Assembly (NCBI GenBank): GCA_964004705.1
Contig: CAXFOQ010000002.1
Location: forward strand, 1,971 to 65,970
DNA: 64,000 bases
Reading direction: 5' to 3'
Source of the DNA: an uncultured Flavobacteriales bacterium
GTDB lineage: Bacteria > Bacteroidota > Bacteroidia > Flavobacteriales > UBA7312
The notes beneath the pieces were generated by a model. That model saw only the letters and a program-made list of their open reading frames with translations, made no database searches and had not been told where the DNA came from. The position numbers and the translations under genes were made by a program. Positions 21,553 through 63,689 of this stretch are shown here, piece after piece (position 1 is the first letter of the stretch; every line of letters starts with the position of its first letter).

Positions 21553-21711
21553 AGAATTTTTGCTAAAATAAGGATTTATTTCATTGGATAACATCACAAT
21601 GCAATATCTATTAAAAAGTTGTTAATATTTTTGGTAGATTTACCAAATTGAAACAATAATAAAATTTATATTTGTGTAGTATTTACACTTTCTATTAATA
21701 ATAATTAAAAA

Positions 21712-26061: not shown

Positions 26062-26207
26062 AATATTTTTATTTAGAACGCGCAAATATAGAATTTCAAT
26101 TTTGAAATAGCAATTGAAATCAGATTTACTAATTATTTGTCTGTATGTTCAATCTCATTATATTTTGGCATACGTTTTTCAAAATTTTAAATCGTAAGTT
26201 TGTAAGT

Positions 26208-29370: not shown

Positions 29371-29553
29371 AAAATTATATTTTAAGCAAAATTAAATATT
29401 TAATACTTTAAATATAAATTAAAAAGTATTAAAATTATGTAAACAACATCATAAATTTGCAAATCTACAGGCTTATCTAAATTAACTTTTTGATATTTGA
29501 TTTTATTTATATCTTTAAAGGCTGAACACATAGCAAGAAAAATCTGTTCATTT

Positions 29554-35866: not shown

Positions 35867-38800
35867 CTTCTAAAGTATTTTCTTCTTCAAACAATTCGTT
35901 AAGTTCAATATCGTTTAAAAGATTGATTATTAATTCGTCTTTTTGCGAGTTCTTTTGAGCCTGTTCATTGAGCAAATCTATTTCCGCTATTTTCTGCAGA
36001 CATATCTCCTTTAAATCTTCTCCATCATAGTTATCTACAATACTTTGCAAGGTAGCTTTAGACTGAAAAAGGTTATCTTTTTCTTTGTAGATATCAGCTA
36101 ATAAAATAAACGATTTCGCAATATAAAAGTCACTGTAATAGTTTTCAGCAAGTTCAAAAATTATCTTTTCTGATTGGTCAAAATCACTTTCAAGATAAGC
36201 TAAGTAAGCTAATTGGTATTTGGCCTCCGAGCCTATCTCATACTGATTTTGTTCTGCAATAATTTGGTAATCTTTTTTAGCTAAATGAAATTCTGATTCG
36301 TCAAAATAATTGTTGGCTATTACTAATCTGGCTTCATTGGCCAGTTCGGCATCAACCTTATCCAAATCAAGAACTGCCTTGGCAGATTCTAATAAACTAG
36401 CATTCAATTCTAAATTTTTATAGCAGTAGAAAAGATTTATCGTAGCTTCTCTTAAAAGACTATTTTCTTGAGCAATTGCTTTTAGATTCGTGTAGTGCAA
36501 GGCAGCAACACCGTATTCTTCTTTTTTAAATTCTATTCGTGCCAAACGGCTTAATGCTCTTTCGGTAAACATATTTTGCGAAAATTCTAACACGCTTAAA
36601 TAATCATCTACAGCTAAATCAGGATCTGTAGTAAAGATAGACTCTGCTTTGTAAAAATGAGCGTTTAATTTGAAGATAGGAGCATCGAATTCATTCAGAT
36701 AGTTTTCAAAAGCATCGATAGCCTTTTCGTAATCTTGCTTGAGATATAAGTTTTCTGAGGCTTCATAACTAATGGAGTCTTTAGATGCTATATCTACACT
36801 TAAATTAGACAGCTTCCCTACATAATCGAAGTACGACTTTACATCTCCTGATTCAACAGAAACATTTTTATAAGCTATTAAGGCCTCTTTAGACTCTTTA
36901 GTATTAGGATAATTTTCAATAACTGATTTGAAATAATAAATGGCTGAGTCTGAAACACTTTCGTTATAAAAATTCAGACCTAATTTTAAAAGAGCCGTTT
37001 TTACCAAAATACTTTTGGGATGTTTTTTTATCAAGTCTGACAATAAAGCTACAGACTCGTCCTGTCTATCCTCATTCAAATACATGGTACTCAAATTAAG
37101 CATAGCATCATCGTTGTATAGCGACTGTGGATAATCGGAAATTAACTGACTAAGTGCCGTTCTTTTTTTATCTCTCTGATTAGTTAGCCCAAAACATTGT
37201 ATTTGCTGATGTATAGCATAATCAACGTCAAAGGCTCCACTTTCTTCAGCTAATCCGTAAAACTCTTGGGCTCTGGTGTAGTCTTGAGTCATATAATATG
37301 CATCTCCCAATCTGAGATAGGCATCGGTTTGCTTTTGAATATCATCGGATAAACTAATGAATTTTCTAAACCAAAGAATAGCATCTTTATATTTAGAAGA
37401 TTGATAGTAAGTGTAAGCTAAAGAATAGTGAGCTTGTTTGTATTCTTCAAGTAAGAAAGAACCGTCTTTTATATTAAACGCTTTGAAAGATTGAATGGCA
37501 TTACCGTAATCTTTGGTGTGGTAATAAGCTTCGGCTTTCCAATAGTATGCCAAAGCAAACAACTTATTGTCTATGGGGTATTTTATTGACTTATCAAACC
37601 AAGTGATGGATTGTTGGTAGCGTTTGTTTACAAAGTGTTCGGCAGCCAAATAATAGCTTAACTTCTGATACACTTGCTGTTGAGGTAAAGACATACTGCT
37701 TAGTGCAGATAACTTATCTACGGCTGTCTGAAAATCTTTAGTGGAAGTGTAGGCTCTAATGAGTAAATCTTGCACATAATCAATATGTAAAGATTGTGGA
37801 TATTCTTCAATAAATTGTTCAATACTTTCAACGGCATTGTCATAAGATGATTGCTCCTCATAAATTAACTTTAAAGAATTGAAAGCAGCATCTTCTTTAA
37901 GTTTGTAATCAAAATTTATAGCTGAAGCATATTTAAAGGCATTAATAGCTAATGGCTTTTTATCTAACAACAGATAACATTGACCTAATTGATGAGCAGC
38001 AAACTGAGATAAACTGTCTTCGTCGAATAAGACATCTTCAAACTGAATAGTAGCTTTGTTATAGTCCTGCAATTCAAAATAAGATAAACCCAATTGGTAT
38101 TTTTCTATTCTATCCAATGAACTCGAAGCATCATCTGACATGTAACCTTCAAGATAATCAATGGAATTTTGGTATTGACCCACAGCAAAGTATGCATCAC
38201 CAATCAATCGTTTCAATTCTTTATCTCGTTTAGGGTTATAGCTATTTTCCAATAAAGGCTTGGCAAAGTCAATTAGCTCATTGTATCGCTCTTGGTAATA
38301 ATAGATATGAGTAATATAATACTTACTAATGATACCTAATGTCGGAGTACTGATTAACTGCTGAAAACCTTCTAATGCTGTAGCGTAATTTCCCTCTTCA
38401 TAAGCTATATGTGACAGACAATAAGTAGTTAACTCTGAATAGGTGAATGCTACAGATTTGACATCAAAGAAAGCCAACTTAGCTTTTTCATATTTATTTA
38501 AAGAAAAGTAGGAATAACCCAAGCGAAAAAAATACATGGCTTCTTCATCAAACTCCAAATCATACACATTAACATTACTCAATTTAGCAACAACTTTATC
38601 ATATTCTTTGTTTCTGAAATGAAGTTTTGCTAATGAAAGATAGGCTTGTCTGCTGTACTTACCTAAAGGATAATTTTCAAGATATTTCTCAAGTCTAAAT
38701 TGGGCTTCATCGTTAAACAATTCTAAAGCACAAATAGCTTGATGAAACTTAACCCATTCGACATCTGATTCATTGATATTAGAACATTCTTGTAAGGCAT

Positions 38801-38927
38801 CAGACATAGAATATACTAAAGCATACTGTTGATTTTTTAGCAGGTCTTTTATCTGTTCAACGTCACAATTCTGGGCAAAAGAGATTTGACTAATAAGTAA
38901 AAAGAAAATGTAAACTCTTAGTCTCAT
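35856..38927 (-). CDS. Very large periplasmic tetratricopeptide-repeat protein (1023 aa)
   Basis: Signal peptide MRLRVYIFFLLISQISFAQ. TPR/YbgF-like helical repeats cover nearly the full length (many (A/G)xYxxGxxYFxxxxYxxAIxxF units). Acidic tail EEENTLEDEE. Confidence 0.8.
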   Translation of the reverse strand: MRLRVYIFFLLISQISFAQNCDVEQIKDLLKNQQYALVYSMSDALQECSNINESDVEWVKFHQAICALELFNDEAQFRLEKYLENYPLGKYSRQAYLSLAKLHFRNKEYDKVVAKLSNVNVYDLEFDEEAMYFFRLGYSYFSLNKYEKAKLAFFDVKSVAFTYSELTTYCLSHIAYEEGNYATALEGFQQLISTPTLGIISKYYITHIYYYQERYNELIDFAKPLLENSYNPKRDKELKRLIGDAYFAVGQYQNSIDYLEGYMSDDASSSLDRIEKYQLGLSYFELQDYNKATIQFEDVLFDEDSLSQFAAHQLGQCYLLLDKKPLAINAFKYASAINFDYKLKEDAAFNSLKLIYEEQSSYDNAVESIEQFIEEYPQSLHIDYVQDLLIRAYTSTKDFQTAVDKLSALSSMSLPQQQVYQKLSYYLAAEHFVNKRYQQSITWFDKSIKYPIDNKLFALAYYWKAEAYYHTKDYGNAIQSFKAFNIKDGSFLLEEYKQAHYSLAYTYYQSSKYKDAILWFRKFISLSDDIQKQTDAYLRLGDAYYMTQDYTRAQEFYGLAEESGAFDVDYAIHQQIQCFGLTNQRDKKRTALSQLISDYPQSLYNDDAMLNLSTMYLNEDRQDESVALLSDLIKKHPKSILVKTALLKLGLNFYNESVSDSAIYYFKSVIENYPNTKESKEALIAYKNVSVESGDVKSYFDYVGKLSNLSVDIASKDSISYEASENLYLKQDYEKAIDAFENYLNEFDAPIFKLNAHFYKAESIFTTDPDLAVDDYLSVLEFSQNMFTERALSRLARIEFKKEEYGVAALHYTNLKAIAQENSLLREATINLFYCYKNLELNASLLESAKAVLDLDKVDAELANEARLVIANNYFDESEFHLAKKDYQIIAEQNQYEIGSEAKYQLAYLAYLESDFDQSEKIIFELAENYYSDFYIAKSFILLADIYKEKDNLFQSKATLQSIVDNYDGEDLKEICLQKIAEIDLLNEQAQKNSQKDELIINLLNDIELNELFEEENTLEDEE

Positions 38928-42800: not shown

Positions 42801-45800
42801 TTATTGTTTTACCAATTTATAATTCACTATTCCGTTAGATGTAATTACGCTTAGTTTATATAATCCCTTAGCATTTTCAGACAAATCAATAATTGTACTA
42901 AAACTACTATTGGCATTAAACGATTGTCCATAGACTTGTTCTCCCAACAGACTGTAAAGTCGAATCTCCGTTTGAGTGTCAGCATAAAAATCTAAATAGA
43001 AGATATCAGACGATGGATTAGGATAAATCTTTAGATTTAAAAGATTGGCTAATCTTACTCCACCTAATGTGTATTCAACAGGCTGTGAGAAAATTGTTGC
43101 CCAAGAAGTACCATTAGTTCCACAAGCACCACGTATTCTCCAAGAATAATCTCCTGCTGTTAAACCAAACTTAGTTTTTGAAGTTAATGAACCTGCTAGG
43201 TTGTTCCACGCCCATACTTGACCTGTAGTAACGTTAGTAAGCTCCAAGAAATAGTGATCTGGTTGTCCATTTTCTGGCGTACTCCAAGACATCGTAATTG
43301 CTGTTTGTGCACCATTAGCACTAGTCAATAGGTTGGTAGGCATTTTGTCGCAAATAGCTTCAGTTGTAAAGGTTGAGAAGTCTCCCCATCCTGAGTGGTA
43401 TTGTGGGTCTGAATCACCATTGGCGTCAACATTACCTGTACACCACGCTTTAGTGTGCCATTCATAGTCTGTACTTGGCGTAAAGTTTCCTTTTAAGACG
43501 TTGATATCACCATTAGCATTTCCATTTAAGTATCGGAAAGAGTTAGTTCCAACCACTCTAACTTTACCTTTAGACTGCCATACACCCCAAGAAGCATCCG
43601 GTGCATCTGCACTTAAAGTCACCCAATTAGCCTCGGTAGAAGCTGATAAGTTTTCTAAGTTAGCACACGCCTCTAGTGTGGTGTATTGTGAACTTGCTGA
43701 CCAAGGCGACTGACAGTTGGTAGAACCATCTTCATTTAGCACTCTCGCTCTAATGTTCCACTGATAAGTAGTCCCTGGCTGCATGAAGTAACGAGTTCTA
43801 CTAGTGCCAGTAAATTCATTAGTATTTACGGGGCCAGCTGTCATAACTGTCCAAGAAGAAGTGCCTACTGGACGATAACGAATCATATAATGTGATGGCG
43901 CAGTGGATGGTGCTGACCAATTGAATACGACTCTATCGTGTATAATATCATCAACAAATAAGCCTGAAGGTACAATGTCACAAGGGTTTACAGGATAGAC
44001 ACAAGAGTTGTCATCGAGTGTTGCTTCTGAGTTATAATTTGAAGCCGCAGAATCTGTACAACCAGCTATATCAATGATCAATACATAAATTGAAAATTCA
44101 GTTTCAACAGTACAGTCTAATGTTATGTCCGTTACAGCTACAGTATAGTCACCAACAGACAAGGCAAATGGATTTTGTTGAATACCATTTAAATCAAATA
44201 CATTGATATCGTAATTGTTAGTTCCATTAATTCCTGTTGCAATAATATTTCCATCAGAAGCATTATGAGAGCTAACGTCCTGAGTACTCAATATAGAAAC
44301 TTGAAAATCGCCACAATAAGTGCAACTACCATCATCTTGAGTAACTAATGGATTATAATTATCTGCTAAAGGGTCCGTACAACCTAAGGTTGTTGTGGTA
44401 TTACAATCGTTACATTCGCCAAAACAAACGACAGGCAAATCTATTATTTGCCCACATTCGGCAGTAAAATAAAAATTAGGAGAATCATCGCCAGTTTCAG
44501 GATTTGTTCCTAAGGCACAATCGTCTGGAGCATAACCAATAACTCCCCAACCAGACCAACCGTCAGCAGCTCCAGATAAAGCATGTACATATTCATATAA
44601 TCCTGGGTCAAATAATTCTAATGAGCCCGAATAAATACCGTCCATATCATCATCAATAAGTGTTACACCCCAAGAGCCCCAATATTGACTAGAATCTCCA
44701 AAAGTATCCCAACTACCATTAATCATAACATTATCATAATCCCCACTGACTACACCACTCGCATTAACATTAAAGTTAATAACTGCTGGTTCTTCACAAA
44801 TCACACACGAACCGTCATCAATGGTAGCAAAAGGGTCATAATTACCTGCTGCCTCATCAGTACAGCCTAAGCCACCACCAATACACTCTGAACATTCACC
44901 AAAACAAATGGTTGGCAAATCAATGACTTGACCACATTGAGCGTCAAAGTAATAATTGGGCGCATCATCACCATTTTCAGGATTTGTTCCTAAAGCACAA
45001 TCATCTGGAGCATAACCAATAATTCCCCAGCCAGAATAACCATCTGCAGAACCACTTAAGGCATGTACATATTCATAAAAGCCTGGCTCTAAGGATAAAG
45101 AACCGGTATAAATACCGTCCATATTGTCATCTGTAAGAGTAACACCCCATGCTCCCCAATACTGATTGGAATCGCCAAAAGCATCCCAACTTCCATTGAT
45201 TAAAACATAGTCATATTCAGCAGAAATAAGGTAACTAGCATCAACACTAAAATTAATTGTAGCAAGTTCTTGACAATCCACACAAGATCCGTCATCCATT
45301 ATGGCATCAGGATTGTAATTAGAGGCTGTTTCATCTGTACAGCCAAATATATTGGGAGAAGAACATTCGCCAGCAATCCAATTGACAACACCACTAATTT
45401 CTGCATAACAAGAATTGGAATAAGTTACATTATCACAGCCACAAATAGGATCGTAAATCTCAAAACAAAAAGCATTGGGGTTAATGAGGTCAGAGTCTAT
45501 ACAAAACTCACAAGAACCATCATCCAAATTAGCATTAGGATTGTAATTGAATGCAGTGACATCGGTACACCCTGAAATACTTGGAGCAATAGAAATGTCG
45601 CAAGTATCGTTAGCATTTATTGTTAAATTATTTTGACTCAATTGCCAGTTTCCACCAAAAGACTGCTTACTCCATAACACATTAATATCTACAGTATTGA
45701 CATCAGAATTCCATGTCATAGTATTACTATATATACCATTATTTGAAGACAATTCTCCGAGAGCATATCCATCAGTAGAACTGTATATAATCAAATCATC

Positions 45801-46739
45801 TAATGGGTCAGCATCGGCCGATTCAACTTGAATAATAATTGAGTTTGGACCATTATTGCCAATAGACAAGAAAACCGATGATGCTACTTCAGCCTCAATC
45901 GCAAAGTGATAAATTTGAGTATCACAGTAAGGAGATTCTCCATCAAGTAAAAACTCACAACTACCATCATCTTCTGAGGCTGCTGGATTGTAGTTCATAG
46001 CCGATTCATCAGTACAACCTGAGATAATTGGACAAGAACCATCATTATCGCAAGTTGCGAAACAATGTAATAGTGTTGTGTCAGAACTTATAGAAGGTAA
46101 AATTCTATCGTTCCAGTTAGCCGCATCAGCACAAGGAAGACCGGCTATATTTTCTTTAGCACCCCAGTCACCGCCATTATTAGGGTTATTTAGTAAGGTG
46201 TAGTTGCCAGTTGCACCATTGCTAATATAAGTTACTCCAGTCCAAATACCATCGCCATCATCATCAGACAATGGTAGTGCCATAGCATCACCAAACATAC
46301 CGCCCCCTATATACATTCCGTTAGGGCCTACTATTATGTTAGCAGTATTTATAGAAAATGTGACGTTAAATCCCTCTGGCTCTGGGTAAGTACACGAACC
46401 ATCATCAGTCGTAGCACTAGGATTAAAATTAGTAGCCGTTTCATCTATACAGCCAAATACAGTCGTAGAAGAACACTCACCATTCACCCAACTCAATACA
46501 CCACTATTTTCGGCATAACAAGAATTGGAATAAGTGACATTATTACAACCACAAACAGGGTCATAAATAAAAAAACAAATGGCATCAGGATTAATAAGTG
46601 AAGGATCTATGCAGTCAAGCGAATTAATCTCATCTACAACAACAGTTATAGAAATTGGCTTAGAAATAGTGTTAGATTCTGACTTAGATATACCAATAAA
46701 TGGCATCAAAATAATCAACAAAGTATAAACAAGTCTCAT
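42801..46739 (-). CDS. 1312-aa mosaic secreted protein: 2 Kazal-like domains, 7 GCTD..NYNP..DDGSC Cys motifs, duplicated beta-rich modules, 3 FN3-like domains, T9SS type A sorting domain
   Basis: Signal peptide. The Kazal-like cores are YDPVCGCNNVTYSNSCYAENSG..GEC and YDPICGCDNVTYSNSCYAEISG..GEC. FN3-like segments include VVFNWSAPSTAPSHYMIRYRPVG. The C-terminus is LKIYPNPSSDIFYLDF...IRLYSLLGEQVY...GLYKLSV. Confidence 0.8.
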   Translation of the reverse strand: MRLVYTLLIILMPFIGISKSESNTISKPISITVVVDEINSLDCIDPSLINPDAICFFIYDPVCGCNNVTYSNSCYAENSGVLSWVNGECSSTTVFGCIDETATNFNPSATTDDGSCTYPEPEGFNVTFSINTANIIVGPNGMYIGGGMFGDAMALPLSDDDGDGIWTGVTYISNGATGNYTLLNNPNNGGDWGAKENIAGLPCADAANWNDRILPSISSDTTLLHCFATCDNDGSCPIISGCTDESAMNYNPAASEDDGSCEFLLDGESPYCDTQIYHFAIEAEVASSVFLSIGNNGPNSIIIQVESADADPLDDLIIYSSTDGYALGELSSNNGIYSNTMTWNSDVNTVDINVLWSKQSFGGNWQLSQNNLTINANDTCDISIAPSISGCTDVTAFNYNPNANLDDGSCEFCIDSDLINPNAFCFEIYDPICGCDNVTYSNSCYAEISGVVNWIAGECSSPNIFGCTDETASNYNPDAIMDDGSCVDCQELATINFSVDASYLISAEYDYVLINGSWDAFGDSNQYWGAWGVTLTDDNMDGIYTGSLSLEPGFYEYVHALSGSADGYSGWGIIGYAPDDCALGTNPENGDDAPNYYFDAQCGQVIDLPTICFGECSECIGGGLGCTDEAAGNYDPFATIDDGSCVICEEPAVINFNVNASGVVSGDYDNVMINGSWDTFGDSSQYWGSWGVTLIDDDMDGIYSGSLELFDPGLYEYVHALSGAADGWSGWGVIGYAPDDCALGTNPETGDDSPNFYFTAECGQIIDLPVVCFGECNDCNTTTTLGCTDPLADNYNPLVTQDDGSCTYCGDFQVSILSTQDVSSHNASDGNIIATGINGTNNYDINVFDLNGIQQNPFALSVGDYTVAVTDITLDCTVETEFSIYVLIIDIAGCTDSAASNYNSEATLDDNSCVYPVNPCDIVPSGLFVDDIIHDRVVFNWSAPSTAPSHYMIRYRPVGTSSWTVMTAGPVNTNEFTGTSRTRYFMQPGTTYQWNIRARVLNEDGSTNCQSPWSASSQYTTLEACANLENLSASTEANWVTLSADAPDASWGVWQSKGKVRVVGTNSFRYLNGNANGDINVLKGNFTPSTDYEWHTKAWCTGNVDANGDSDPQYHSGWGDFSTFTTEAICDKMPTNLLTSANGAQTAITMSWSTPENGQPDHYFLELTNVTTGQVWAWNNLAGSLTSKTKFGLTAGDYSWRIRGACGTNGTSWATIFSQPVEYTLGGVRLANLLNLKIYPNPSSDIFYLDFYADTQTEIRLYSLLGEQVYGQSFNANSSFSTIIDLSENAKGLYKLSVITSNGIVNYKLVKQ
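44388..45344 (-). repeat. Intragenic tandem duplication, 2 x 477 nt (159 codons)
   Basis: Protein units at aa ~466-624 and ~625-784 align residue for residue (GCTDE..., INGSWD.FGDS.QYWG.WGVTL.DD.MDGIY.GSL, YEYVHALSG.ADG.SGWG.IGYAPDDCALGTNPE.GDD.PN.YF.A.CGQ.IDLP..CFGEC..C). The DNA shares long identical runs, e.g. TTTTCAGGATTTGTTCCTAA and TCTGGAGCATAACCAATAA at 44.49 and 44.97 kb. Confidence 0.85.
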
Positions 46740-46898: not shown

Positions 46899-46903
46899 TA
46901 GTG

Positions 46904-46985
46904 TGCGGATGAAGGGAGTCGAACCCCCACGCCTCGCGGCACTAGATCCTAAGTCTAGCGTGTCTACCAATTCCACCACATCCGC
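46904..46985 (-). tRNA. tRNA-Leu (anticodon TAG), long variable arm
   Basis: Reverse strand reads GCGGATGTGGTGGAATTGGTAGACAC...GACTTAGGATC...variable arm...GGTTCGACTCCCTTCATCCGCA, with anticodon loop CTTAGGA. Confidence 0.92.
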
Positions 46986-54217: not shown

Positions 54218-54230
54218 TTTTCAATGTATT

Positions 54231-54267
54231 AAAAAATTCAAAAGAGAAGACCACAATAGCCTTCTCT
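54231..54267 (-). terminator. Hairpin plus T-rich tract after the PorV/PorQ-like gene
   Basis: Sense strand AGAGAAG-gctattgtggt-CTTCTCT followed by TTTGAATTTTTT. Confidence 0.45.
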
Positions 54268-54296
54268 CCTCACTAAATTACAAAATTTATTTTTAT

Positions 54297-55328
54297 TTAC
54301 AGATCTATACGAACACCTATAGTATTCAACAATCCAAAATGATCGGCGGTACGTAAGGAGTAATCTACACCAAACGTTGTTTCACCACTTAAAGGTAATT
54401 CAACTGTAAAACCAACCGATAAACCTGTCAAATCAGTACTACCATCGGACATACCTTCTTCATATACATAACCTCCTCTAAGAGATACTAACTCTTTGAA
54501 TGAATACTCGATTCCAAAACGGAATTGATCATTCTGAAATGAATTTGATGTAAAGGTTCCTGCTGTTGTTAATCGATGATTTTCTGGCAAAACTGGAACA
54601 TCATACGCTAGTCCTATGTTCAACAAAGAAGGTAATTCAAAAGCATTAGTTCTTTGTTCTAGAGTCATAGTATACTCTCCGTCTGGAGCTTGACCTCTAA
54701 AAGAAATACCATCACCGTCAAAAATCATAGTCGGTCCAACATTTTTTAGTGCAATACCGAATTTTATATGATCATTCTCACCTGTGATATACTGAATGCC
54801 TGCATCTAAAGCTATACCACTTGCTGTAACGTCCGACGTGCCTTCAATAATAGCTTTCATGACGAAACCACCATAAATACTGTTAGAAAAAGCTTTAGAG
54901 TAACCAACATTTAAGTTTGTGGCAGATATACTATAAGTACCTAAACCTCCGTCAGGAAGCAATTCTGTAGTAATCATAATATCAGCTAAAGAAATAGAAG
55001 ATATGGCTAATGCTAACACAGATGACTCATTCATGCGTTGTGAGAAACCAAAAGAATTAATTGGCACATCAGCAATCCATGAAGAACGAGAAAATATAAG
55101 CTCTGTTTTATCTGTAAAAGCTAGACCAGCTACATTGCCGTATAATGACTCTAAACCTCTCACTGAAGCTATATTTGAACCGCCCCAACCAGAAGACCTT
55201 GCCCAAGGGTTAATCAATAATTGACTAGCACCTGCAGAACCAACTCGATCCGGGTTTCCAGCTGGTAGATTGGTTGTAAAAGCACAAGCTAATAGCAAAA
55301 CCCCAAAGTATTTTAATGATCGTATCAT
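54297..55328 (-). CDS. PorV/PorQ-family (FadL-like) outer-membrane beta-barrel
   Basis: Signal peptide MIRSLKYFGVLLLACAFTTNLPA. The N-terminal stretch GSAGASQLLINPWARSSGWGGSNIASVRGLESLYGNVAGLAF resembles the conserved PorV/PorQ opening motif. Alternating beta pattern to the end. ~343 aa is closer to PorQ-size than to canonical PorV. The ATG at 55328 is preferred to the TTG at 55340. Confidence 0.6.
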   Translation of the reverse strand: MIRSLKYFGVLLLACAFTTNLPAGNPDRVGSAGASQLLINPWARSSGWGGSNIASVRGLESLYGNVAGLAFTDKTELIFSRSSWIADVPINSFGFSQRMNESSVLALAISSISLADIMITTELLPDGGLGTYSISATNLNVGYSKAFSNSIYGGFVMKAIIEGTSDVTASGIALDAGIQYITGENDHIKFGIALKNVGPTMIFDGDGISFRGQAPDGEYTMTLEQRTNAFELPSLLNIGLAYDVPVLPENHRLTTAGTFTSNSFQNDQFRFGIEYSFKELVSLRGGYVYEEGMSDGSTDLTGLSVGFTVELPLSGETTFGVDYSLRTADHFGLLNTIGVRIDL

Positions 55329-55347
55329 TTCTAATTTCAATTAAATA

Positions 55348-58300
55348 TTAAAAGGTGTCTAAGTCAATTGGACGTAACACACCAAACCATTTTAAATTTC
55401 TTTCTTTACCTAGACTAGGAACACTAACATTAATAATATATGCCCCACTAGCAATAGGAATACCCTTTTGATTTTTAAGGTCCCAATCGATTGATGCAGA
55501 ACCTTCACTATCTTTATTCAGTTGTTTAACTAACGAACCGTTTATGGTGTATATGGAAATAACACACTCATCTGGCAGGTTAGTAATTCTAACTCTTGAA
55601 TCTAATTGACCTCCGTTTTCTACACCTTCATAAGTAGAATAAGCATAGTATGGGTTAGGCACAACATTAATTAAATCCATAACTGAATCTACTTGACTTA
55701 CTTCAGTCATAACTGTAGGTGCTATCCCTTCAGTAGAAAAACGATAATTTGGATAATTAACTTTCTTATAAGAAACTGTAATATTTACTGGTGAGCTTTG
55801 TGTTCCGCCGCTAACTTTATCTACATAGTATATATCACCTAGACTGTTGGATTGTCTCCAATTATCATTAACCTTAACTGAGTCTGTCGCAGAAATTGAA
55901 GTAATCTCATAGGCATACAATCTATCATAGTTATTTAAAAATTCTTTTAATGGAGTAGCTGTAGTCGTGATAGAAATATCTTCTGTGAACTCTGTGTCAT
56001 CTACTTCAACCATTTCTCTATACTCTCTAGAAACATCAATATTAATAGTTACGTCTGATGATAATAAATCATAACCTTCCTTTAATAATGGAACTGATGT
56101 CCACATCATATCTCTAAAGAAACTTAACTTACCAGTAGTTGATTCTAGATCTACCATGGCTTGTTCACATTCATCATATTTAGATGAGTGTACATAAATA
56201 AAATGCTTACCTCCCAAGTAATAACTTCCATTTGCCCAAGTAGGTATCTGTGTCTGAACTCTTGTTGATGGGTTCCATAACATATCATCACCATTATCGG
56301 AACTTAACCAAGAGTCTTCTGCAAACATAATATTTAGACGCTCACCTGTTTCTTTATTAATTGCGTAACCTGGGAACCAACCCATACCTGTCCCTGTTCC
56401 GTCAGGGTTGCCATCTTTATCGACTGATTCATCTGATCGTGGATCAAGTTTAGCTACACCACCTTTTGCAAAAGCTGTGTTATCTTGAGATTCTAAAACT
56501 ACGCATCTTGACCACTTAGACTTATCATCAGTGATAACAACTTTTACACTTTGTAAGTTCCTCATTCTATTACCTAATTGAGATTGGGGAAAGCTGTACG
56601 TCCCACTAAAATTTGTGTTGATCGAATAACCAGGACCATCAATGTATGGAGAAACTAATCTGTAAGGTCCCCAAGTACCATTAACAACATCTTCAAATAC
56701 ACCATCGGGATCACCATCAATATCGTTAAATACAGTATTTGCTGCAGTTGAATATGAACCAGCACGAATCCAATTTCTAGCCCAAAGATAAGTATTACTA
56801 ACTGAAACTTCTCCATCTTCCTCATCAACATCTCTAACGCCACCTAACCATGGGTTATATTCATCACTAAATTCAATTGAAGATGAAATTAAACGGTTAC
56901 TCTCTTCGTAATTAGCTGAATTGGATAAATAATCCCAAGCTGGAGGATTTTCTTGATTTACCTCAATAGAAAAACCAAATTCACTGAATAATTGTTGATT
57001 TCCATCACCAATAGTGGCGTCTGAAACGTAGCTCTCATTGGTATTCAAATTCACTAATTCCCATTTACTTAAATTTTGGTCTAAAACAATATGTCTAGGG
57101 TCAGAAGAAGAAGCATTGTAGACCTCTCCAAACATCTTAAGAGCAAACTCAGATTGTGTAAGATTTCTAGGGTCTATCACTTGAATGTCAACTGGTCCTA
57201 AGTTAGCTTGATAAACAGGCTCTTCAGATTCGTGATTAGCTGAAGTTAGTATTTGATTTTCTGTTTCCTCAGTTAAAGCCAGTTCAAAACCACCATTACC
57301 AGCACCGTAAATTTTCTTAATCTCTACACCATCTCCAACTTTTGCATTATAAATAGTTGTAAACGGTTTATGTGGAATTCCAGTGTAAACTTTAATATTT
57401 TTACGTCCAGCTTTGTATGGTTTTTGCTGACCATCAAGTTTATCTGGATCAGTAGGGTCGTAATCTTTATATTTATTATATCCATATGCAACAGACATAA
57501 AATAATAAGCTTGATTATTGACCAATTTTTTATTCTGGAGTGCGAATTGATCCTCAGTTATTGAAACCGAGTGCTGTATACCTTGATTAGTAGCTGCTAC
57601 TTCAAGTGATGGTACATTTGCTCCAATTGAAACATCGAAATTATAATTAATCAAATTTTCAACCGAATCCTCTAAATCACATTGATATACAAGACGAGCT
57701 AAATCAGGGTTATCTAGATCTGTTACACTTACAGAAACAGAAGCTAACTGATATAATTGATATCCTTGGAATCTAAAATATGGATCCCAATCTTGACCTG
57801 GAGGTGAAATTATTAATGGGTCAAACTCTATATATTCTTCTAAAAAATTATTTGATGTTGGCCCATTTGATAAGTTTAATACCAATTCTTGATCAAGTTC
57901 AATAATTTCTACATCCGGAGCATCAGGACCGTTTAAAACTTGGAAACAGTTATCAAATAAAGCTTGTGCTTTATCATCAGCTAGACGGATTAGTTCAACA
58001 GAAGCTAAATTATCACCAGCTGTGGCTCTTGCCCATACAACACCTGTGGTAATTCTGTTTACAGCGCCAGGCTCCAGTGTAAAAGGTCCTGCAGATTGTA
58101 CAAACCGTCTATCAGCAGGGTCATTTCCAGAGTTCTTTTCTGTCCATCCTTCTGGCTCATCCCAGTCGTCTGAAGTTATTAATCCGTCTGTACCCCAACC
58201 ATATGGATCTGTATCACCTGGGAACATGAATTTGGCAAGTGTAGAACCACCACGACCTGTACCACCATAAGTAATATCTAATCCGTCTTTCCATTTACCT

Positions 58301-59469
58301 AATAGATAATTATAAACGTGCTGACCATTTTCAGGATTACCAGTTACAGTAAAGTCATTATTATAATATACAAAGCGAGACATAATAGCTTGCTCTCCTG
58401 GCTCATCAATGATACTATCTCTATCGTTATCAATACCATCATCAGGATCTGCCAAAGGACCTTGGAAGAAATCCACGCCAATAGCTGGAGGAGTAGTTCC
58501 ATATCCAGAAGCTCCTTCATCGTTATCGTCACCGTTATAGCAATATCCAAAACCACGAGCTACATCACAACCTACGTAATCATCATCATACTTTCCTAAA
58601 TCTGGGTCAACCCACTGACCAAAATAAGTATCGTTTAATTGAATGGTTGCTTTGTTGATTATTTTATAGTTGTAGAATGTCATGTTATTGATTTCATCAT
58701 TGGTAGCAAAAGCAAAAGCTTGTGCACGAATTTCTAAACCAATAGGATCAGCACTTGTTTCGGAGTGTATATTTCCTTTATCATTGAATACCCAATACAA
58801 AGTTTGATCACCATAAATAAGGTCATCATCATTACAATCTAAGTCACCATCAATATCGTACTTAGGATAATCTCCATCGTTAGGGTTGTATTCTCCATCA
58901 TCATTAGCATCATAGTAAGGAGCTAAAAACTGATAGTCACCATCGATACCATTTCCTGGCCAATTTGTAATGCTATTAGGGATTGTATAATCCGGATATG
59001 CGGAATTGTCATTGAACCAAGCAATGAATTCATCCACTTCTTGACGAGTAATACTAAAATGTTTATCGTAATTCTCACAGGTTTCTGCACTGATATCACC
59101 ATTTTCATCAAGTGGACCAGTCCAAAAGTCATTTCCTGACTGTCGGTAAGTCATAGCTGCAGCCTTTAGTTGCTCACCAGCATCAATACCAGCAATCCAT
59201 AAAGCACCAGCAAACATAGAATGTTTGTTACTATTTTTAGGAATTTCATATCTAGCATCACTCAAGTTCCACCACATATCACCACCTCCCATAATGGTAG
59301 TCCTAACGTTGTTGATATTCAAATCCGTCATAGCTTGTGAAGGAGTGCAATCTGCTGCTACCCTAGCCAAGCTTGTCTGAGAATCTGAACCTGAAGTTCC
59401 TACATTTTCTTTAGCGAATAATGTTAAAGAAGATATACTTGCAATAACGACTAATACTATTTTGTTCAT
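55348..59469 (-). CDS. 1373-aa secreted protein of unknown function with Asp-rich Ca-binding-like motifs and a T9SS type A / FlgD-Ig-like C-terminal beta-sandwich
   Basis: Signal peptide MNKIVLVVIASISSLTLFA. Asp-rich runs are YYDANDDGEYNPNDGDYPKYDIDGDLDCNDDD and DPDDGIDNDRDSIIDEPGE. The C-terminus is VVPNPYYAYS...VISIYTINGSLVKQL...IDWDLKNQKGIPIASGAYIINV...RPIDLDTF. I could not recognise a catalytic signature. Confidence 0.7.
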   Translation of the reverse strand: MNKIVLVVIASISSLTLFAKENVGTSGSDSQTSLARVAADCTPSQAMTDLNINNVRTTIMGGGDMWWNLSDARYEIPKNSNKHSMFAGALWIAGIDAGEQLKAAAMTYRQSGNDFWTGPLDENGDISAETCENYDKHFSITRQEVDEFIAWFNDNSAYPDYTIPNSITNWPGNGIDGDYQFLAPYYDANDDGEYNPNDGDYPKYDIDGDLDCNDDDLIYGDQTLYWVFNDKGNIHSETSADPIGLEIRAQAFAFATNDEINNMTFYNYKIINKATIQLNDTYFGQWVDPDLGKYDDDYVGCDVARGFGYCYNGDDNDEGASGYGTTPPAIGVDFFQGPLADPDDGIDNDRDSIIDEPGEQAIMSRFVYYNNDFTVTGNPENGQHVYNYLLGKWKDGLDITYGGTGRGGSTLAKFMFPGDTDPYGWGTDGLITSDDWDEPEGWTEKNSGNDPADRRFVQSAGPFTLEPGAVNRITTGVVWARATAGDNLASVELIRLADDKAQALFDNCFQVLNGPDAPDVEIIELDQELVLNLSNGPTSNNFLEEYIEFDPLIISPPGQDWDPYFRFQGYQLYQLASVSVSVTDLDNPDLARLVYQCDLEDSVENLINYNFDVSIGANVPSLEVAATNQGIQHSVSITEDQFALQNKKLVNNQAYYFMSVAYGYNKYKDYDPTDPDKLDGQQKPYKAGRKNIKVYTGIPHKPFTTIYNAKVGDGVEIKKIYGAGNGGFELALTEETENQILTSANHESEEPVYQANLGPVDIQVIDPRNLTQSEFALKMFGEVYNASSSDPRHIVLDQNLSKWELVNLNTNESYVSDATIGDGNQQLFSEFGFSIEVNQENPPAWDYLSNSANYEESNRLISSSIEFSDEYNPWLGGVRDVDEEDGEVSVSNTYLWARNWIRAGSYSTAANTVFNDIDGDPDGVFEDVVNGTWGPYRLVSPYIDGPGYSINTNFSGTYSFPQSQLGNRMRNLQSVKVVITDDKSKWSRCVVLESQDNTAFAKGGVAKLDPRSDESVDKDGNPDGTGTGMGWFPGYAINKETGERLNIMFAEDSWLSSDNGDDMLWNPSTRVQTQIPTWANGSYYLGGKHFIYVHSSKYDECEQAMVDLESTTGKLSFFRDMMWTSVPLLKEGYDLLSSDVTINIDVSREYREMVEVDDTEFTEDISITTTATPLKEFLNNYDRLYAYEITSISATDSVKVNDNWRQSNSLGDIYYVDKVSGGTQSSPVNITVSYKKVNYPNYRFSTEGIAPTVMTEVSQVDSVMDLINVVPNPYYAYSTYEGVENGGQLDSRVRITNLPDECVISIYTINGSLVKQLNKDSEGSASIDWDLKNQKGIPIASGAYIINVSVPSLGKERNLKWFGVLRPIDLDTF

Positions 59470-59490
59470 GTCTATACTATTTATCTTAGA

Positions 59491-62400
59491 CTAAAAGTTA
59501 ATTTCTATACCTAAGCGTGCCATTCTTGGCAAGCTGTAATTCGATGGATTGTTAATTTTCATCATATACATATCTCTGAATGATTGTGGATCATTCTGAG
59601 CATTAATATCTGTTTGAGCTGATGCATCAGATAGATAACCATCATCATCAGGATTTCCAGTTGCCCGATAAACCGATCTAACATTCTTAGTGTTTAAGAG
59701 GTTTTGTACCTGTAAATAGATGTTGAAACCTAATTTCTTTTTATCATCTAGTTGACCAACATCAAGTGAGAATCTTTTATTGATTTTAGTGTTTATCCTA
59801 ACTGTCCATGGATTTCGTGAACCGTTCAGACTTCCCTCTAAAGTAGATCGCTGGTTTATCCCAAAAGCACCATCTTGTGTAATATTAGATTGTCTTGAAT
59901 ATGGCGTACCTGATCCAGCAATAATTATGAAATTAGCACCAGAATTAGCTAAAACTTGCTTATTAAACCAAACCGGTCCATTGTAGTCTTTACCGCTATC
60001 AAATCTGTAATCCATACTTAAATTGAAAGCATGTCTTTGATCATAACTTAAAGGTATTGTTGTCCTCAAGTTTGGTTGCCCTGTATTTACTAAGCTCAAA
60101 GCTGAAGATGATGATGAACCTGTACCATTTGCAAATTGCAGTGTATAGTTAGCTGACATAGATACATTTCCACTTCTTCTCATTTCATACAAAGCTGAAA
60201 AACCTTTAACTGTACTAAAGTCAATGTTTCCATAAGTCAAATATGAAACTGGATATGAATAATTTGTCTTAACAACTTGTATCATATCTCTTAACTCTCT
60301 GTAAAATGCAGACAGTGTTAATGATGAGTTTAAATTTAGAGTTTGAGCAAATCCTAATTCAAAGTCAACTGTTTTTTCTGATTTCAAATTAGGATTCTGA
60401 ACAAATGCATTTACCGTTTCAGCCAAGTATAAATAACTAATAGGGTTTAACCTATTTCCTGTGGGAGGTCTTTGAGTTAAAACATCGTAATGAGCAAAGA
60501 ATTGCGCCTCATCAGAAATTGGAAAGGAGAACGAAATTCTTGGAGAAAAATCAGTTTGAGGTTCAAAATCTTTAAAGACTGGAATACTATCCTCAGAGTT
60601 TACAAGATATGGAGTAATTTGACCTGTTGTTGAAGCTTGAGCTAATATTTTAGGGTCATTGATAGCCTCGCCGTTCTCATCAAACCAATCTTGACCAGAA
60701 CGATAACCTACTACTTCAGTAGGATTATCTAAATCATTCACATAAACTACATAGTCATCACCAATTCCTGCTGGTCTAGTATAATCACCGCTAAGTAAAG
60801 ATACATTTGAACTTGCAGTATATGTATCATACAAGCAATATTCATCTGCTAAAACAGATTGGTTAGCATCATATCGATCTACCCTCAAGCCTATACTAAA
60901 AATTAAATCGTCAAAAGCAAATTTATCTTGTATATAACCTGCAGTATAGATAGGTTCAAAAGCACCAATATTTCTTGTGAAATCTTCTTTGTCATTTGTT
61001 TCAGTAAAGAAATCTTCGATAGATGCGGCAGAATTCAATTCGTCACCTTTATAGTCATATCCATAATAAGAAACCAAACCATTTTCGTTTAATTCATCTG
61101 CACTAAACATATCAATAGATAATTGATCAGGGTCATACGAATCTATATCAATAAACTCATCGGGAGCAATATTATATTTCTCCCTCAAATTAGCGTCAAA
61201 ACGAGATTGGGCATTTGTATTAACTAAACGATCATAGTACACTTGGTCATAGGTACCCAAAGCATTGAATTGTGGATTGGCTAGGTCTAATTCTAAAATA
61301 TGGAAATTAGTTAATTGTCTTGCAAGACCCCAGAGCGAGTTTGGAGCAACAAACCAACTTCTATCTGTTCTTTTCTCATATTCAAATCCAAATTGAATAG
61401 CATGATCCTTTATATCAGCCGAACCATTTGCCCTAATGGAGAATTGTTCAGCCTGTTGTTTTCCGTAAGAACCATACTGATCACCGTAATTATAATACAG
61501 TGAATATACATTTCTAGGTCCTTGACCATTTAGTAGCCCTAGCTCTCCCAAATCATTAGCTGTTCTTATGACACCTCTATTTCCACTACCTCCAAAAGAT
61601 AAACTTTGCAGCTCGTTTTCTCTAAACATGTCATAATATTGTTGAGTGTAAGCTGCTAAATCAGGATTAGATGAATTACTACCATCAAAAGTCATTAGGG
61701 TATCAATGAAACCTCTATGAATAAATCCACTTACACCACTTGCTGTATCTTCTCCAAAGGTGTAGAATCTTTCTTTATAAGTATTGAATTTACCCACGTG
61801 ACCATATCTGAATAACTCTTGACCATGATTTGGATTTCTTCTTTCAAAATCATTTCTTGTGTAATCTACAGTAATATTATAGTAAGCATTTTTGATATTA
61901 GAAGCAGACTCATCATCACCTTCTTGAGCACCAAATCGTTGTGTAAATCTTGCATATGTTCTCCATGTATTTCTTTCCTCTTCAGAATTATTTTGCCAAT
62001 TCAGTAAAGAATAAGTATAAACAAAAGGATGGTCAACTGAATGACTTACTGCTCCACCCAATGTTAGATTCGTTTTAAGAGTAGGTTTGAAGTCTAACTT
62101 TCCAGATAAATTAAATCCACTTAGGTTTGTATTCATTTTAGCTTGAACATTTTCAAAATCATCAGCTCTTAAAAAAGTAGCATTACTCAATAAACCAATT
62201 GATGAAGATTGTTGATTAGGTACAGCTACAAAAAGATTTTCTTTCAAATCTTCTAGTTTGTTATCCTTAATTTTCCAAACTCCTACTGCTGAAGGACTAG
62301 GGTCATCGATGTTTCTAAATTCACCTGCAAGGAAGTAACCTAAGATAGCTCTTCCTTTAGAACCATCTTCTTTAATCTCCTTGTAGATTGGACCTGAAAG

Positions 62401-63153
62401 ACCAAAACCAAGTAATCCATAATTATAACTATCAAATATGTGCGATGATACAACTTCAGCACCACCATATAATTGATTGGATGGGCCTTTTGATGTTACA
62501 CTGATAATACCACCTGTAGCATCACCATACATAGCAGATAAACCACTTGACATAACTGTTATTTGTTCAATTGCACTCTGCGGCAAAGCTAAACTTCCTC
62601 GAACCTTGACCCCATCTACATAATAATCTGTAGCCTCAGATCGAGAGCCTCTAACATTAACAGAAGATCCTTCATCAGACTGGTATACACCAGCTGCAGT
62701 TGCAGCAACAGAGGTAACACTTCGAGTGGGCATAGAACGAATTTCTTCACTAGTTACCGTTTTACCTCCTAAATTGTCGGGGTCTAATAGTGGTTTTTCA
62801 TCTTTAATAACTACTTCTTCAATATCAATACCCTCAGATAATTGAACATCTCTAAATGTAATTTTATTTGAAGAAACTACAATACCTTCAAGAGTCACTT
62901 GACCATATCCCACAAAGGATACGATTAAGTCGTAAGTGCCAGGATCAAGTGGCTTGATTGTATAATTACCATCAAAATCAGTTGTAACACCTGCAATTTG
63001 ATTGCCATTTCTTTCAGCAACAACATTTGCAAAGGGTACAGTTTCACCAGTGTTTTTATCAGTAATTTTTCCTTCTAAGGAGCCTGACTGCGCGAAGATA
63101 GATGAGCTTGTAAAAATCAAGCCTACTATAAGCAAGTATAATTTATTGAACAT
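59491..63153 (-). CDS. Oversized (1220 aa) TonB-dependent-receptor-like barrel with N-terminal CarboxypepD_reg-like domain
   Basis: Signal peptide, then a GSLEGKITDKNTGETVPFANVV...DFDGNYTIKPLDPGTYDLIVSFVGY beta-sandwich. A plug-like segment follows (EEIRSMPTRSVTSVAATAAGV...VNVRGSRSEATDYYVDGVKVRG...MYGDATGGIISVTSKG). The long barrel ends ...ARLGIEINF. Confidence 0.82.
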   Translation of the reverse strand: MFNKLYLLIVGLIFTSSSIFAQSGSLEGKITDKNTGETVPFANVVAERNGNQIAGVTTDFDGNYTIKPLDPGTYDLIVSFVGYGQVTLEGIVVSSNKITFRDVQLSEGIDIEEVVIKDEKPLLDPDNLGGKTVTSEEIRSMPTRSVTSVAATAAGVYQSDEGSSVNVRGSRSEATDYYVDGVKVRGSLALPQSAIEQITVMSSGLSAMYGDATGGIISVTSKGPSNQLYGGAEVVSSHIFDSYNYGLLGFGLSGPIYKEIKEDGSKGRAILGYFLAGEFRNIDDPSPSAVGVWKIKDNKLEDLKENLFVAVPNQQSSSIGLLSNATFLRADDFENVQAKMNTNLSGFNLSGKLDFKPTLKTNLTLGGAVSHSVDHPFVYTYSLLNWQNNSEEERNTWRTYARFTQRFGAQEGDDESASNIKNAYYNITVDYTRNDFERRNPNHGQELFRYGHVGKFNTYKERFYTFGEDTASGVSGFIHRGFIDTLMTFDGSNSSNPDLAAYTQQYYDMFRENELQSLSFGGSGNRGVIRTANDLGELGLLNGQGPRNVYSLYYNYGDQYGSYGKQQAEQFSIRANGSADIKDHAIQFGFEYEKRTDRSWFVAPNSLWGLARQLTNFHILELDLANPQFNALGTYDQVYYDRLVNTNAQSRFDANLREKYNIAPDEFIDIDSYDPDQLSIDMFSADELNENGLVSYYGYDYKGDELNSAASIEDFFTETNDKEDFTRNIGAFEPIYTAGYIQDKFAFDDLIFSIGLRVDRYDANQSVLADEYCLYDTYTASSNVSLLSGDYTRPAGIGDDYVVYVNDLDNPTEVVGYRSGQDWFDENGEAINDPKILAQASTTGQITPYLVNSEDSIPVFKDFEPQTDFSPRISFSFPISDEAQFFAHYDVLTQRPPTGNRLNPISYLYLAETVNAFVQNPNLKSEKTVDFELGFAQTLNLNSSLTLSAFYRELRDMIQVVKTNYSYPVSYLTYGNIDFSTVKGFSALYEMRRSGNVSMSANYTLQFANGTGSSSSSALSLVNTGQPNLRTTIPLSYDQRHAFNLSMDYRFDSGKDYNGPVWFNKQVLANSGANFIIIAGSGTPYSRQSNITQDGAFGINQRSTLEGSLNGSRNPWTVRINTKINKRFSLDVGQLDDKKKLGFNIYLQVQNLLNTKNVRSVYRATGNPDDDGYLSDASAQTDINAQNDPQSFRDMYMMKINNPSNYSLPRMARLGIEINF

Positions 63154-63281
63154 AGTTTTATAAAATTCTATTCATATTCTGCTTAACAAAAGTTTGTAAA
63201 TATAGAAATTAAATGATGATTATCTAATAAGTTGTGCTAAAAAATTTGTACTCTTACAACATGAATCAGACCTCATTTTAA

Positions 63282-63689
63282 TTGAATAAATATTTAACAT
63301 TATTATTAATTATAATTTTTTCATCATGTACAAAAGATGATAATATTATTCCTGATGTTCCGGTCAGTTTTAGAATACAAGCCTCCGAATTAGGCGGCGT
63401 CGGAAGCGCCGTTTATACTCAAGAGATTTATGGTATTAGAGGAATAATAATATATCATAAAAATATTAATGAATACGTTGCTTATGAAAGAGCATGCTCT
63501 TTCAGACCTAGCAATGATTGTGAGGTAATTCAGTTAAATGATGAGATAAATCCTAGTTTTTTGACGGATAGCTGTTGTAACTCCAATTTTTTACTTGAAG
63601 ATGGCACCCCATTTAGTGGTCCTGCACTAGTGCCATTGAAACAATACTACACTAATTTTGACGGCACTTACATTTATATTTCTAACTAG
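63282..63689 (+). CDS. Small lipoprotein with a Rieske-fold-like core lacking the His ligands
   Basis: Lipobox LLLIIIFSSC. The core ...GIIIYHKNINEYVAYERACSFRP...DSCCNSNFLLEDGTPFSGPALVPLKQY... parallels the Rieske pattern A...CPH...CP.HGS.F....G....GPA..PL..Y, but with C-S-F and C-C-N-S-N-F. TTG start (the upstream ATG frame is closed). Confidence 0.45.
   Translation: MNKYLTLLLIIIFSSCTKDDNIIPDVPVSFRIQASELGGVGSAVYTQEIYGIRGIIIYHKNINEYVAYERACSFRPSNDCEVIQLNDEINPSFLTDSCCNSNFLLEDGTPFSGPALVPLKQYYTNFDGTYIYISN

Follow-up and report, generated by a model that had tools for sequence, protein, structure and literature searches.

A Proposed Anchoring and Capture Module at the Outer Membrane of Bacteroidota

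The anchoring of a protein by an uncleaved C-terminal domain (CTD) on an outer-membrane barrel of the PorV/PorQ type has so far been reported for components of the T9SS (type IX secretion system) machine, i.e., PorU and PorZ, type B cargo being served by separate barrels of the PorP/SprF type. In Porphyromonas gingivalis, where each of these pairs joins a PorV/PorQ-family barrel with a T9SS substrate, the CTDs of both PorU and PorZ remain uncleaved. PorZ stays on PorQ and PorU on PorV, and it has been suggested that PorQ takes PorZ over from the Sov translocon and remains bound to it (PMC10947112, PMC10202324). Here, we describe three genes, named g1, g2, and g3 like their products, found on the minus strand of a 64,000-nucleotide stretch (the window) from an uncultured Flavobacteriales bacterium (GenBank assembly GCA_964004705.1, contig CAXFOQ010000002.1, positions 1,971 to 65,970). 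g1 (59491..63153) encodes a TonB-dependent transporter of 1220 amino acids; g2 (55348..59469) encodes a secreted protein of 1373 amino acids that belongs to a large family with no Pfam or NCBIfam model; and g3 (54297..55328) encodes an outer-membrane barrel of 343 amino acids from the PorV/PorQ family, for which we propose a role as collector and anchor of g2. We propose, with a probability that we put at about 45%, that the trio is an outer-membrane surface module in which g2 is exported by the T9SS, anchored by g3, and used as a capture subunit for import through g1.

The g2–g3 pair resembles the PorQ–PorZ and PorV–PorU pairs in that the g2 CTD best matches the models of PorZ and PorU, at their CTD ends, and that g3 passes the family model. 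However, the body of g2 is related neither to the propellers of PorZ nor to the peptidase of PorU, g3 stays under the PorQ and PorV equivalog cut-offs, and the pair sits in an operon with a TonB-dependent transporter gene. The porQ and porZ genes themselves presumably lie apart in P. gingivalis. In this species, they bear the locus numbers PG0602 and PG1604, respectively (PMC5445135). Type B cargo offers another parallel since, as for SprB and SprF of Flavobacterium johnsoniae, the cargo gene lies beside that of its own FadL-fold shuttle or anchor (PMC12618676, PMC10202324). On the contrary, the g2 CTD is not of type B, g3 falls in the PorV/PorQ branch, and the unit contains a TonB transporter.

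From the side of the transporter, the closest likeness is SusC–SusD. As in this system, g1, with its N-terminal extension and TonB box, is directly followed by the gene for a large putative surface partner. However, g2 is neither a lipoprotein nor SusD-like, g1 does not match the SusC/RagA model TIGR04056, and displaying g2 would call for the T9SS plus a third subunit, of barrel type. BtuB–BtuG and the utilisomes are further Bacteroidota complexes between TonB transporters and surface proteins. An architectural precedent for the hypothesized g1–g3–g2 arrangement is given by the BamA–BamG–BamH complex of Bacteroidota, in which BamG, a 14-stranded FadL-fold barrel, is packed on a large barrel while its loops hold an extracellular subunit (PMC12578637). 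The families and the function are nonetheless unrelated, and BamH is a lipoprotein and not a T9SS substrate. Finally, PorF (PG0534) is a barrel of TonB-receptor type functionally tied to type IX secretion (PMC5445135). It differs from g1 by its size (about 92 kDa versus about 135 kDa), and its gene does not lie beside porQ or porZ. By analogy, the trio would function most like PorQ–PorZ for anchoring and most like SusC–SusD for the pairing of a transporter with its partner, while being a member of neither. No description of it was found in a full-text literature search. Its novelty lies in a new combination of known types, together with a large family of proteins for which no model exists.

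A Conserved Three-Gene Operon

In the list of open reading frames (ORFs), g1, g2, and g3 run in the same direction on the minus strand and are tightly packed, and all three products have signal-peptide-like N-termini. The spacer between g1 and g2 counts 21 nucleotides (nt; 59470-59490). Between g2 and g3, it counts 7 nt if g3 starts at a TTG codon (55340), in which case the gene covers 54297-55340 and encodes 347 amino acids, and 19 nt if it starts at an ATG (55328), in which case it covers 54297-55328 and encodes 343 amino acids (MIRSLKYF...). Because of the sequence of this junction (...TTT TAA tatttaa TTG AAA TTA GAA ATG ATA CGA...), we take the ATG at 55328 as the more likely start, giving 343 amino acids and a 19-nt spacer, with the in-frame TTG at 55340 as an alternative. 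The original prediction, made from the letters of the window and its ORFs, had reported three co-directional minus-strand genes with these tiny gaps. Both strand and gaps proved correct, and only its coordinate for the ATG (55329) was one base off.

The same layout is found in many other genomes. With conserved peptides of g2 as seeds, a scan of genomes retrieved at least 578 of them at species level, and the best 80 loci, numbered with the prefix L below, were analyzed by calling the trio with tblastn and ORF clustering. They come from Flavobacteriales (Cryomorphaceae, Parvicellaceae, and Salibacteraceae), Bacteroidales (including Lentimicrobiaceae), and Chitinophagales. Among these 80 loci, 73 carry g1, g2, and g3 with their order and strand preserved, at identities ranging from 38 to 97%. 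The lowest values are 38-40% for g1 and g2 and about 40-45% for g3, and g1 keeps 38-56% identity across orders. The median spacers, calculated on 71 loci, are 28 nt between g1 and g2 and 31 nt between g2 and g3. The seven remaining loci comprise two that are cut by contig ends (L031, without g3 only, and L052, which keeps a fragment of g3) and five solitary g2 paralogues. Moreover, a look-up seeded with g3 gave the same layout from independent gene calls. The trio is therefore syntenic in three orders, where the original prediction had named a lack of synteny in related genomes as a finding that would refute it. With its order and strand kept and its median spacers short, it fits the single transcription unit that had been claimed, and g1-g2-g3 is almost certainly a real conserved operon.

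The promoter-sized gap and the downstream hairpin with its T tract, on which this claim was also based, are both present in the window. Upstream of g1, a non-coding region of 128 nt (63154..63281) presumably contains the promoter and the 5' untranslated region, and a divergent ORF lies beyond it. Two putative boxes were found there, TATATTTA at 63204-63197 and AACTTTTG at 63194-63187, each with one mismatch to TAnnTTTG, the -7 box consensus of Bacteroidota. A sigma-70 promoter scan of this upstream region gave fewer sites than shuffled sequence, Bacteroidota promoters being known to deviate from the sigma-70 consensus, and a search of the region against Rfam, which returned no match at E ≤ 1 and none at the gathering score, found no riboswitch or other RNA element. 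On the downstream side, the terminator scan and the sequence itself reveal a terminator-like hairpin with a T-run (54230..54270) between g3 and greA, whose start lies at 54217. The hairpin is made of 14 pairs (54270-54240 on the minus strand) and is followed by GAATTTTTTA.

A Probable Secretion Signal of a PorZ/PorU-like Subclass

The C-terminal domain of g2 (residues 1241-1373; 55351..55749) appears as a T9SS sorting or anchor domain of a PorZ/PorU-like subclass. When the last 120 amino acids were compared with the available models, the best match was PorZ (positions 661-741 of 757, E 2.6e-9, 36.1 bits), followed by PorU (positions 1024-1083 of 1095, E 2.8e-6, 25.3 bits) and by the generic type A model TIGR04183 (positions 15-60 of 72, E 7.9e-4, 19.4 bits for a cut-off of 23). 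No match was obtained to PF18962 (Por_Secre_tail) in Pfam or to the type B models TIGR04131 and CHU_C. Four g2 homologues were tested in the same way. PorZ was the top match in three of them, and the fourth (P0044) passes TIGR04183 with 26.3 bits, the others reaching 20-21 bits with this model; several g2 homologues have also been named T9SS CTD proteins by NCBI. The controls taken from the window behave in the opposite way. Two type A CTDs score 40.7 and 37.7 bits with TIGR04183 and have no PorZ or PorU match at E ≤ 1, and a type B CTD matches TIGR04131 only, with 57.2 bits. The original prediction had seen a type A or FlgD-Ig sorting domain at this place. That the domain is a T9SS-type CTD holds, and g2 is very probably a T9SS substrate, but this CTD is closer to those of PorZ and PorU than to the generic type A.

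The conservation of this domain is high. Over 81 family members, the mean frequency of the top residue in the CTD reaches 0.61-0.72, which equals the best segments of the core, versus 0.08-0.19 in the hypervariable linker that precedes it (residues 1161-1240; 55750-55989), and near-invariant residues are found up to the last amino acid. Furthermore, in two genomes with two copies of g2, the CTD is the most similar region between copies (0.77 and 0.84 identity). At the five solitary g2 loci, a search with the family hidden Markov model (HMM) at E ≤ 1 revealed no g3-like gene. A CTD conserved between g2 paralogues, together with solitary copies that lack a barrel gene, is the pattern expected if several g2 proteins share one g3. 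We consider as moderately supported, judging from these comparisons, that the CTD serves for anchoring and would be retained rather than cleaved. The idea of a private attachment module, one of several offered for the locus by the original prediction, is strengthened by the PorZ/PorU-like CTD, the opposite behavior of the controls, the conservation of the CTD, and the solitary paralogues without barrel.

The proposed partner in this anchoring, g3, matches the PorV/PorQ family model NF033709 (PorV_fam) over residues 37-343 with 125.6 bits for a cut-off of 90. It fails all three equivalog models (NF033710, NF033711, and NF052325), with 48.5 bits for PorV (cut-off 250), 60.8 for PorQ (cut-off 220), and 31.5 for PorV2 (cut-off 325), respectively. 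Being far under the equivalog cut-offs yet above that of the family, g3 is therefore a distinct paralogue within the PorV/PorQ family, as had been predicted. A profile of its family finds the solved PorV of F. johnsoniae (6h3i_F) with an E of 7.2e-10, and NCBI lists its homologues under the name "PorV/PorQ family protein". g3 is probably the dedicated anchor of g2.

A Large Secreted Protein without Family Model

g2 begins with a signal-peptide-like sequence (residues ~1-19), and its conservation profile delimits a conserved core (residues 41-520; 57910-59349). The body of the protein matches nothing in Pfam and NCBIfam beyond one marginal NCBIfam match, at chance level and far under its cut-off, and a scan of 16 family members revealed no domain match on the body either. 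No catalytic motif had been recognized at first reading either. Likewise, no relative was found among PDB sequences, including with a family profile. The AlphaFold2 model of residues 25-1140 (pLDDT 82, pTM 0.66) is mostly made of beta structure. With this model, Foldseek returned from the PDB best TM-scores of about 0.2, mostly with glycoside hydrolases and phosphorylases (GH94, GH116), and from BFVD FN3-like phage proteins. None of these matches allows a homologue to be named at the level of the fold. The family itself is large. When searched with HMMER using the body alone, cluster representatives at 50% identity number 7,766 at E ≤ 1e-3, 6,238 at E ≤ 1e-10, and 2,695 at E ≤ 1e-30. The alignment reveals four invariant cysteines and several Asp-rich loops, which fits an extracytoplasmic protein that may bind calcium.

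The two genomes with two g2 copies also locate the region where paralogues diverge most, residues 761-1000 (56470-57189), which form their least similar structured region (0.51 and 0.57 identity). The names given by NCBI and JGI to homologues of the trio are limited to "hypothetical", "T9SS C-terminal target domain-containing", "PorV/PorQ family", and generic TonB receptor. Of the known proteins that share its CTD subclass, g2 is not PorZ, the full-length model NF052228 being matched at positions 661-741 only (36.1 bits for a cut-off of 260), and the body has no match to the PorZ propeller families of Pfam. Nor is it the PorU sortase, since NF033707 is matched over its last 60 positions only (25.3 bits for a cut-off of 420) and no C25 peptidase is present. 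An ordinary porU-porV locus, which the original prediction had named as a finding that would overturn it, is ruled out, g2 having no peptidase or PorU body and g3 being under the PorV equivalog cut-off.

A TonB-Dependent Transporter Outside the SusC/RagA Group

The first gene of the operon encodes a protein in which a signal peptide (residues 1-21, cleavage FA|QSGS) is followed by a CarboxypepD_reg N-terminal extension (residues 25-105; 62839-63081; Pfam, 60.9 bits), a TonB-box-like IEEVVIK (residues 111-117; 62803-62823), a Plug domain (PF07715; residues 132-216; 62506-62760; 45.8 bits for a cut-off of 23.9), and a long putative barrel region (residues 217-1220, end ...GIEINF). By inspection of the family alignment, the TonB box is kept as G-E-V-x-V-I, of Bacteroidota type, with an invariant E. 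The barrel model PF00593 is found, as a precomputed match, in homologues that are 97-98% identical and in the orthologues L081-L083, g1 itself having no match at E ≤ 0.01, and residues 914-1053 show partial NCBIfam matches to TonB-transporter barrels. Because of the N-terminal extension, the conserved TonB box, the Plug, and the presence of PF00593 in near-identical homologues, we read g1 as a TonB transporter. The family profile matches only solved N-terminal extension domains in the PDB (6ytc and 9hfj). The AlphaFold2 model, made from a shallow alignment (28 sequences, all at ≥57% identity), is poor (mean pLDDT 43.7), and Foldseek led to weak matches with TonB transporters.

The SusC/RagA model TIGR04056 gives no match to g1, while another transporter in the window matches it weakly, and g1 is, judging from these profiles, a TonB transporter that is not of SusC/RagA type. 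No SusD-like gene was found among the annotated neighbors in the window. A SusC/SusD pair is ruled out, g1 having no TIGR04056 match and no SusD family match being found in g2, in 16 members of its family, or in the annotated neighbors. The sandwich-plug-barrel layout and the lack of a nearby SusD-like gene had both been recognized in the original prediction, and Pfam confirms the first of these for CarboxypepD_reg and Plug. The protein had also been called oversized. With 1220 amino acids, it is indeed long for a classical TonB-dependent transporter, but it exceeds the Bacteroidota SusC-type proteins only moderately.

A Possible Capture Module and Its Alternatives

In the mechanism that we propose, g2 (about 150 kDa) would reach the periplasm through Sec and then cross the outer membrane through the T9SS by means of its CTD. 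g3 would collect it at the translocon and stay on the uncleaved CTD, in the manner of PorQ with PorZ and of PorV with PorU, and g2 would thereby be permanently displayed at the cell surface. Held by g3 beside or over g1, a plugged barrel that would be energized by TonB, g2 would capture a ligand, probably macromolecular, and hand this ligand on to g1, to be imported in a TonB-dependent manner. Such a module would follow the logic of SusC–SusD, with a surface subunit delivered and anchored by the T9SS instead of a lipid. The steps of export by the T9SS, CTD retention, binding of g2 to g3, and surface display would follow from the established behavior of the families concerned. The coupling of g2–g3 to g1 for uptake, to which gene linkage is the pointer, is put forward tentatively, as is the role of a lid that the original prediction had suggested for g2. 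The paralogues of g2, in which the N-terminal core and the CTD are constrained and residues 761-1000 vary, would fit the docking surfaces and the specificity region of a capture subunit. If so, the T9SS might assemble a stable subunit of a TonB import machine, a PorQ-like barrel tethering a substrate of about 150 kDa to a TonB transporter, which we advance as a speculative possibility. With the same reserve, such tethering could represent a third way to couple capture and uptake, beside SusD-type lipoproteins and soluble carriers of the hemophore or siderophore kind.

Several observations weigh against such a capture module. The CTD scores under the cut-off of the generic type A model TIGR04183 (19.4 bits versus 23), and its FlgD_ig match (residues 1295-1349) is also below threshold (25.8 bits for a cut-off of 27). 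The body of g2 shows no recognizable binding or catalytic domain, and its best structural TM-score is about 0.2. In contrast to polysaccharide utilization loci, no enzyme, inner-membrane transporter, or riboswitch is linked with the operon. The fixed place of the trio among ahcY, greA, HIT, and ruvC, with its high conservation, would suit a housekeeping role in the envelope equally well. Finally, the known components of the T9SS already include a TonB-receptor-like barrel, PG0534/PorF, of unknown role (PMC5445135).

Alternatively, g2 could be displayed and nothing more, as an adhesin, a coat, or an S-layer-like protein exported by the T9SS and anchored by g3, with g1 as an ordinary nutrient transporter that shares the transcript but makes no contact with g2 or g3. 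The evidence for anchoring, i.e., the CTD subclass, the conservation, and the solitary paralogues, applies equally to this possibility; g2 is large and, in its predicted model, beta-rich with Ig/FN3-like sandwiches like those of adhesins; and its solitary paralogues occur without a g1 neighbor. However, a g1 placed directly before g2 in 73 of 80 loci from three orders, at a median of 28 nt, would be unusual for unrelated functions, and g1 is itself highly conserved across orders (38-56% identity). We consider this display without uptake as unlikely. Another possibility is that the trio is an accessory of the T9SS, a lineage-specific counterpart of PorF, PorZ, and PorQ that would process, attach, or modify other cargo or a surface glycolipid, with no import. 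It could account for the closeness of the g2 CTD to that of PorZ, for the slightly higher score of g3 with PorQ than with PorV, and for the housekeeping-like genomic place and high conservation of the operon, and it has a precedent in PG0534/PorF, a TonB-receptor-like barrel required for T9SS function (PMC5445135). On the other hand, g2 matches the PorZ model in its CTD only (36 bits versus 260) and has no propeller match in Pfam, g1 has no match to a T9SS-named NCBIfam model and possesses a full TonB box and Plug, and several genomes have duplicated copies of g2, an unusual situation for part of a machine; such an accessory module seems quite unlikely.

Two further explanations concern the way g2 leaves the cell or remains on it. 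g3 could be a dedicated shuttle that only escorts g2 away from the translocon, the CTD being then cleaved and g2 released or covalently attached to a glycolipid like type A cargo. For type B cargo, specialized shuttles with genetic linkage have been documented (PMC12618676), and the homologue P0044 passes the generic type A model (26.3 bits versus 23). However, a CTD as conserved as the core and near-invariant to its last residue goes beyond the needs of a transient signal, and it is most closely related to the CTDs of PorZ and PorU, the two that are known to be retained, which makes the released form very doubtful. The last explanation reverses the direction of transport, g1 secreting g2 or another substrate like Oar of Myxococcus. 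g1 shares with Oar the domain order CarboxypepD_reg, Plug, and long barrel. But the Pfam scan of g1 gave no match to an Oar-like barrel model, g2 carries a T9SS-type signal of its own, and a T9SS is present in the genome; export through g1 is highly improbable.

If the capture module is real, the operon would extend the PorZ/PorU type of anchoring to a widespread dedicated cargo, and it would directly join type IX secretion with the main nutrient-uptake route of Bacteroidota, TonB-dependent transport. The operon is kept in marine Flavobacteriales with small genomes, in anaerobic Bacteroidales, and in Chitinophagales; its function is therefore likely relevant in many habitats. Counting 2,695 or more clusters at 50% identity, the g2 family is among the larger ones still without model or structure, and g2 would be the founding member of a family with no Pfam, NCBIfam, or PDB representative, in a system that would be conserved in at least 570 Bacteroidota species. 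Moreover, the trio offers a simple three-gene test bed for the recognition of CTDs by PorV-family barrels.

Gene Neighborhood and Variants of the Locus

In the window, the annotated neighbors of the trio are greA, a HIT protein gene, ruvC, and genes for a membrane protein with an LPG_synthase_TM domain (lysyl-phosphatidylglycerol synthase type), a glycosyltransferase, and a permease. No paralogue of g1, g2, or g3 is present elsewhere in the 64 kb. Across the loci, the flanks consist of ahcY and a small Rieske-like lipoprotein gene upstream and of greA (65 loci), HIT (63 loci), and ruvC downstream. The divergent ORF that borders the upstream region of g1 in the window (63282-63689, plus strand, 135 amino acids) has itself no family match. 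Its homologues are small and lipoprotein-like and match Rieske weakly (PF00355, 20.9 bits). In 41 of the 80 loci, they lie upstream of the trio in divergent orientation, mostly beside ahcY.

Around 14 loci of Bacteroidales type (L023, L028, L033, L037, L039, L040, L042, L043, L047, L050, L059, L070, L074, and L079) carry, directly upstream and on the same strand, a propeller-type sensor kinase of 1053 amino acids (six Reg_prop, Y_Y_Y, and His_kinase) and a LytTR response regulator. In these lineages, the operon may have its dedicated regulator in this pair. A conserved acidic membrane protein of 164 amino acids, with no informative family match, is encoded in 19 loci, many of them with the kinase pair and others without it.

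The number of copies also varies. A second g2 is present downstream of g3 in two loci (L013 and L021), g3 is duplicated in L020, and L064 has tandem g2 copies without g1 and g3. Solitary g2 paralogues are found elsewhere in the genome in L011, L016, L027, and L035, the first sharing its metagenome-assembled genome (MAG) with the full trio L006. Nearly all of the best 80 loci come from MAGs and one from a single-cell genome, no cultured host being found among them, and a cluster look-up for a cultured carrier returned only "Cryomorphaceae bacterium". Two taxonomic labels call for caution. L072, labeled "Omnitrophica WOR_2", is probably a mis-binned Bacteroidales contig, because its flanking genes are those of the Lentimicrobium-type loci L057, L058, and L068, and the label "Chryseobacterium gleum" of the MAG that contains L041, a short contig, is doubtful.

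T9SS Components and Other Features of the Window

The window encodes other proteins related to type IX secretion. A PorE-family T9SS protein of 695 amino acids (19510-21597, minus strand) scores 571.5 bits with NF052230, just under the cut-off of 600. Type A CTDs are carried by a Kazal and fn3 protein of 1312 amino acids (42801-46739, minus strand) and by an FG-GAP protein (26145-28391, plus strand), and a type B CTD by an SprB-repeat protein (29497-32043, plus strand). The neighbor of this SprB-repeat gene on its upstream side, the only flank screened, is an ORF of 307 amino acids that encodes a malate dehydrogenase and not a PorP/SprF barrel. From the PorE-family gene and the type A and type B cargo genes, we conclude that the organism has a T9SS. 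Moreover, a protein of 1023 amino acids rich in tetratricopeptide repeats (35856-38927, minus strand) shows weak similarity to PorW/SprE (54.7 bits for a cut-off of 250), and its gene overlaps by 11 nt an ORF of 565 amino acids (34169-35866, minus strand) with no Pfam or NCBIfam match; the two may form a divergent T9SS or envelope pair.

Six tRNA genes, all on the minus strand, were also identified. Five of them (Trp, Thr, Gly, Tyr, and Thr) are grouped in 4573-6322, with an ORF of 395 amino acids among them (4711-5898), and a lone tRNA-Leu gene lies at 46903-46985. The GC content of the window is uniform, at about 29-39%, and corresponds to an ordinary chromosomal context.

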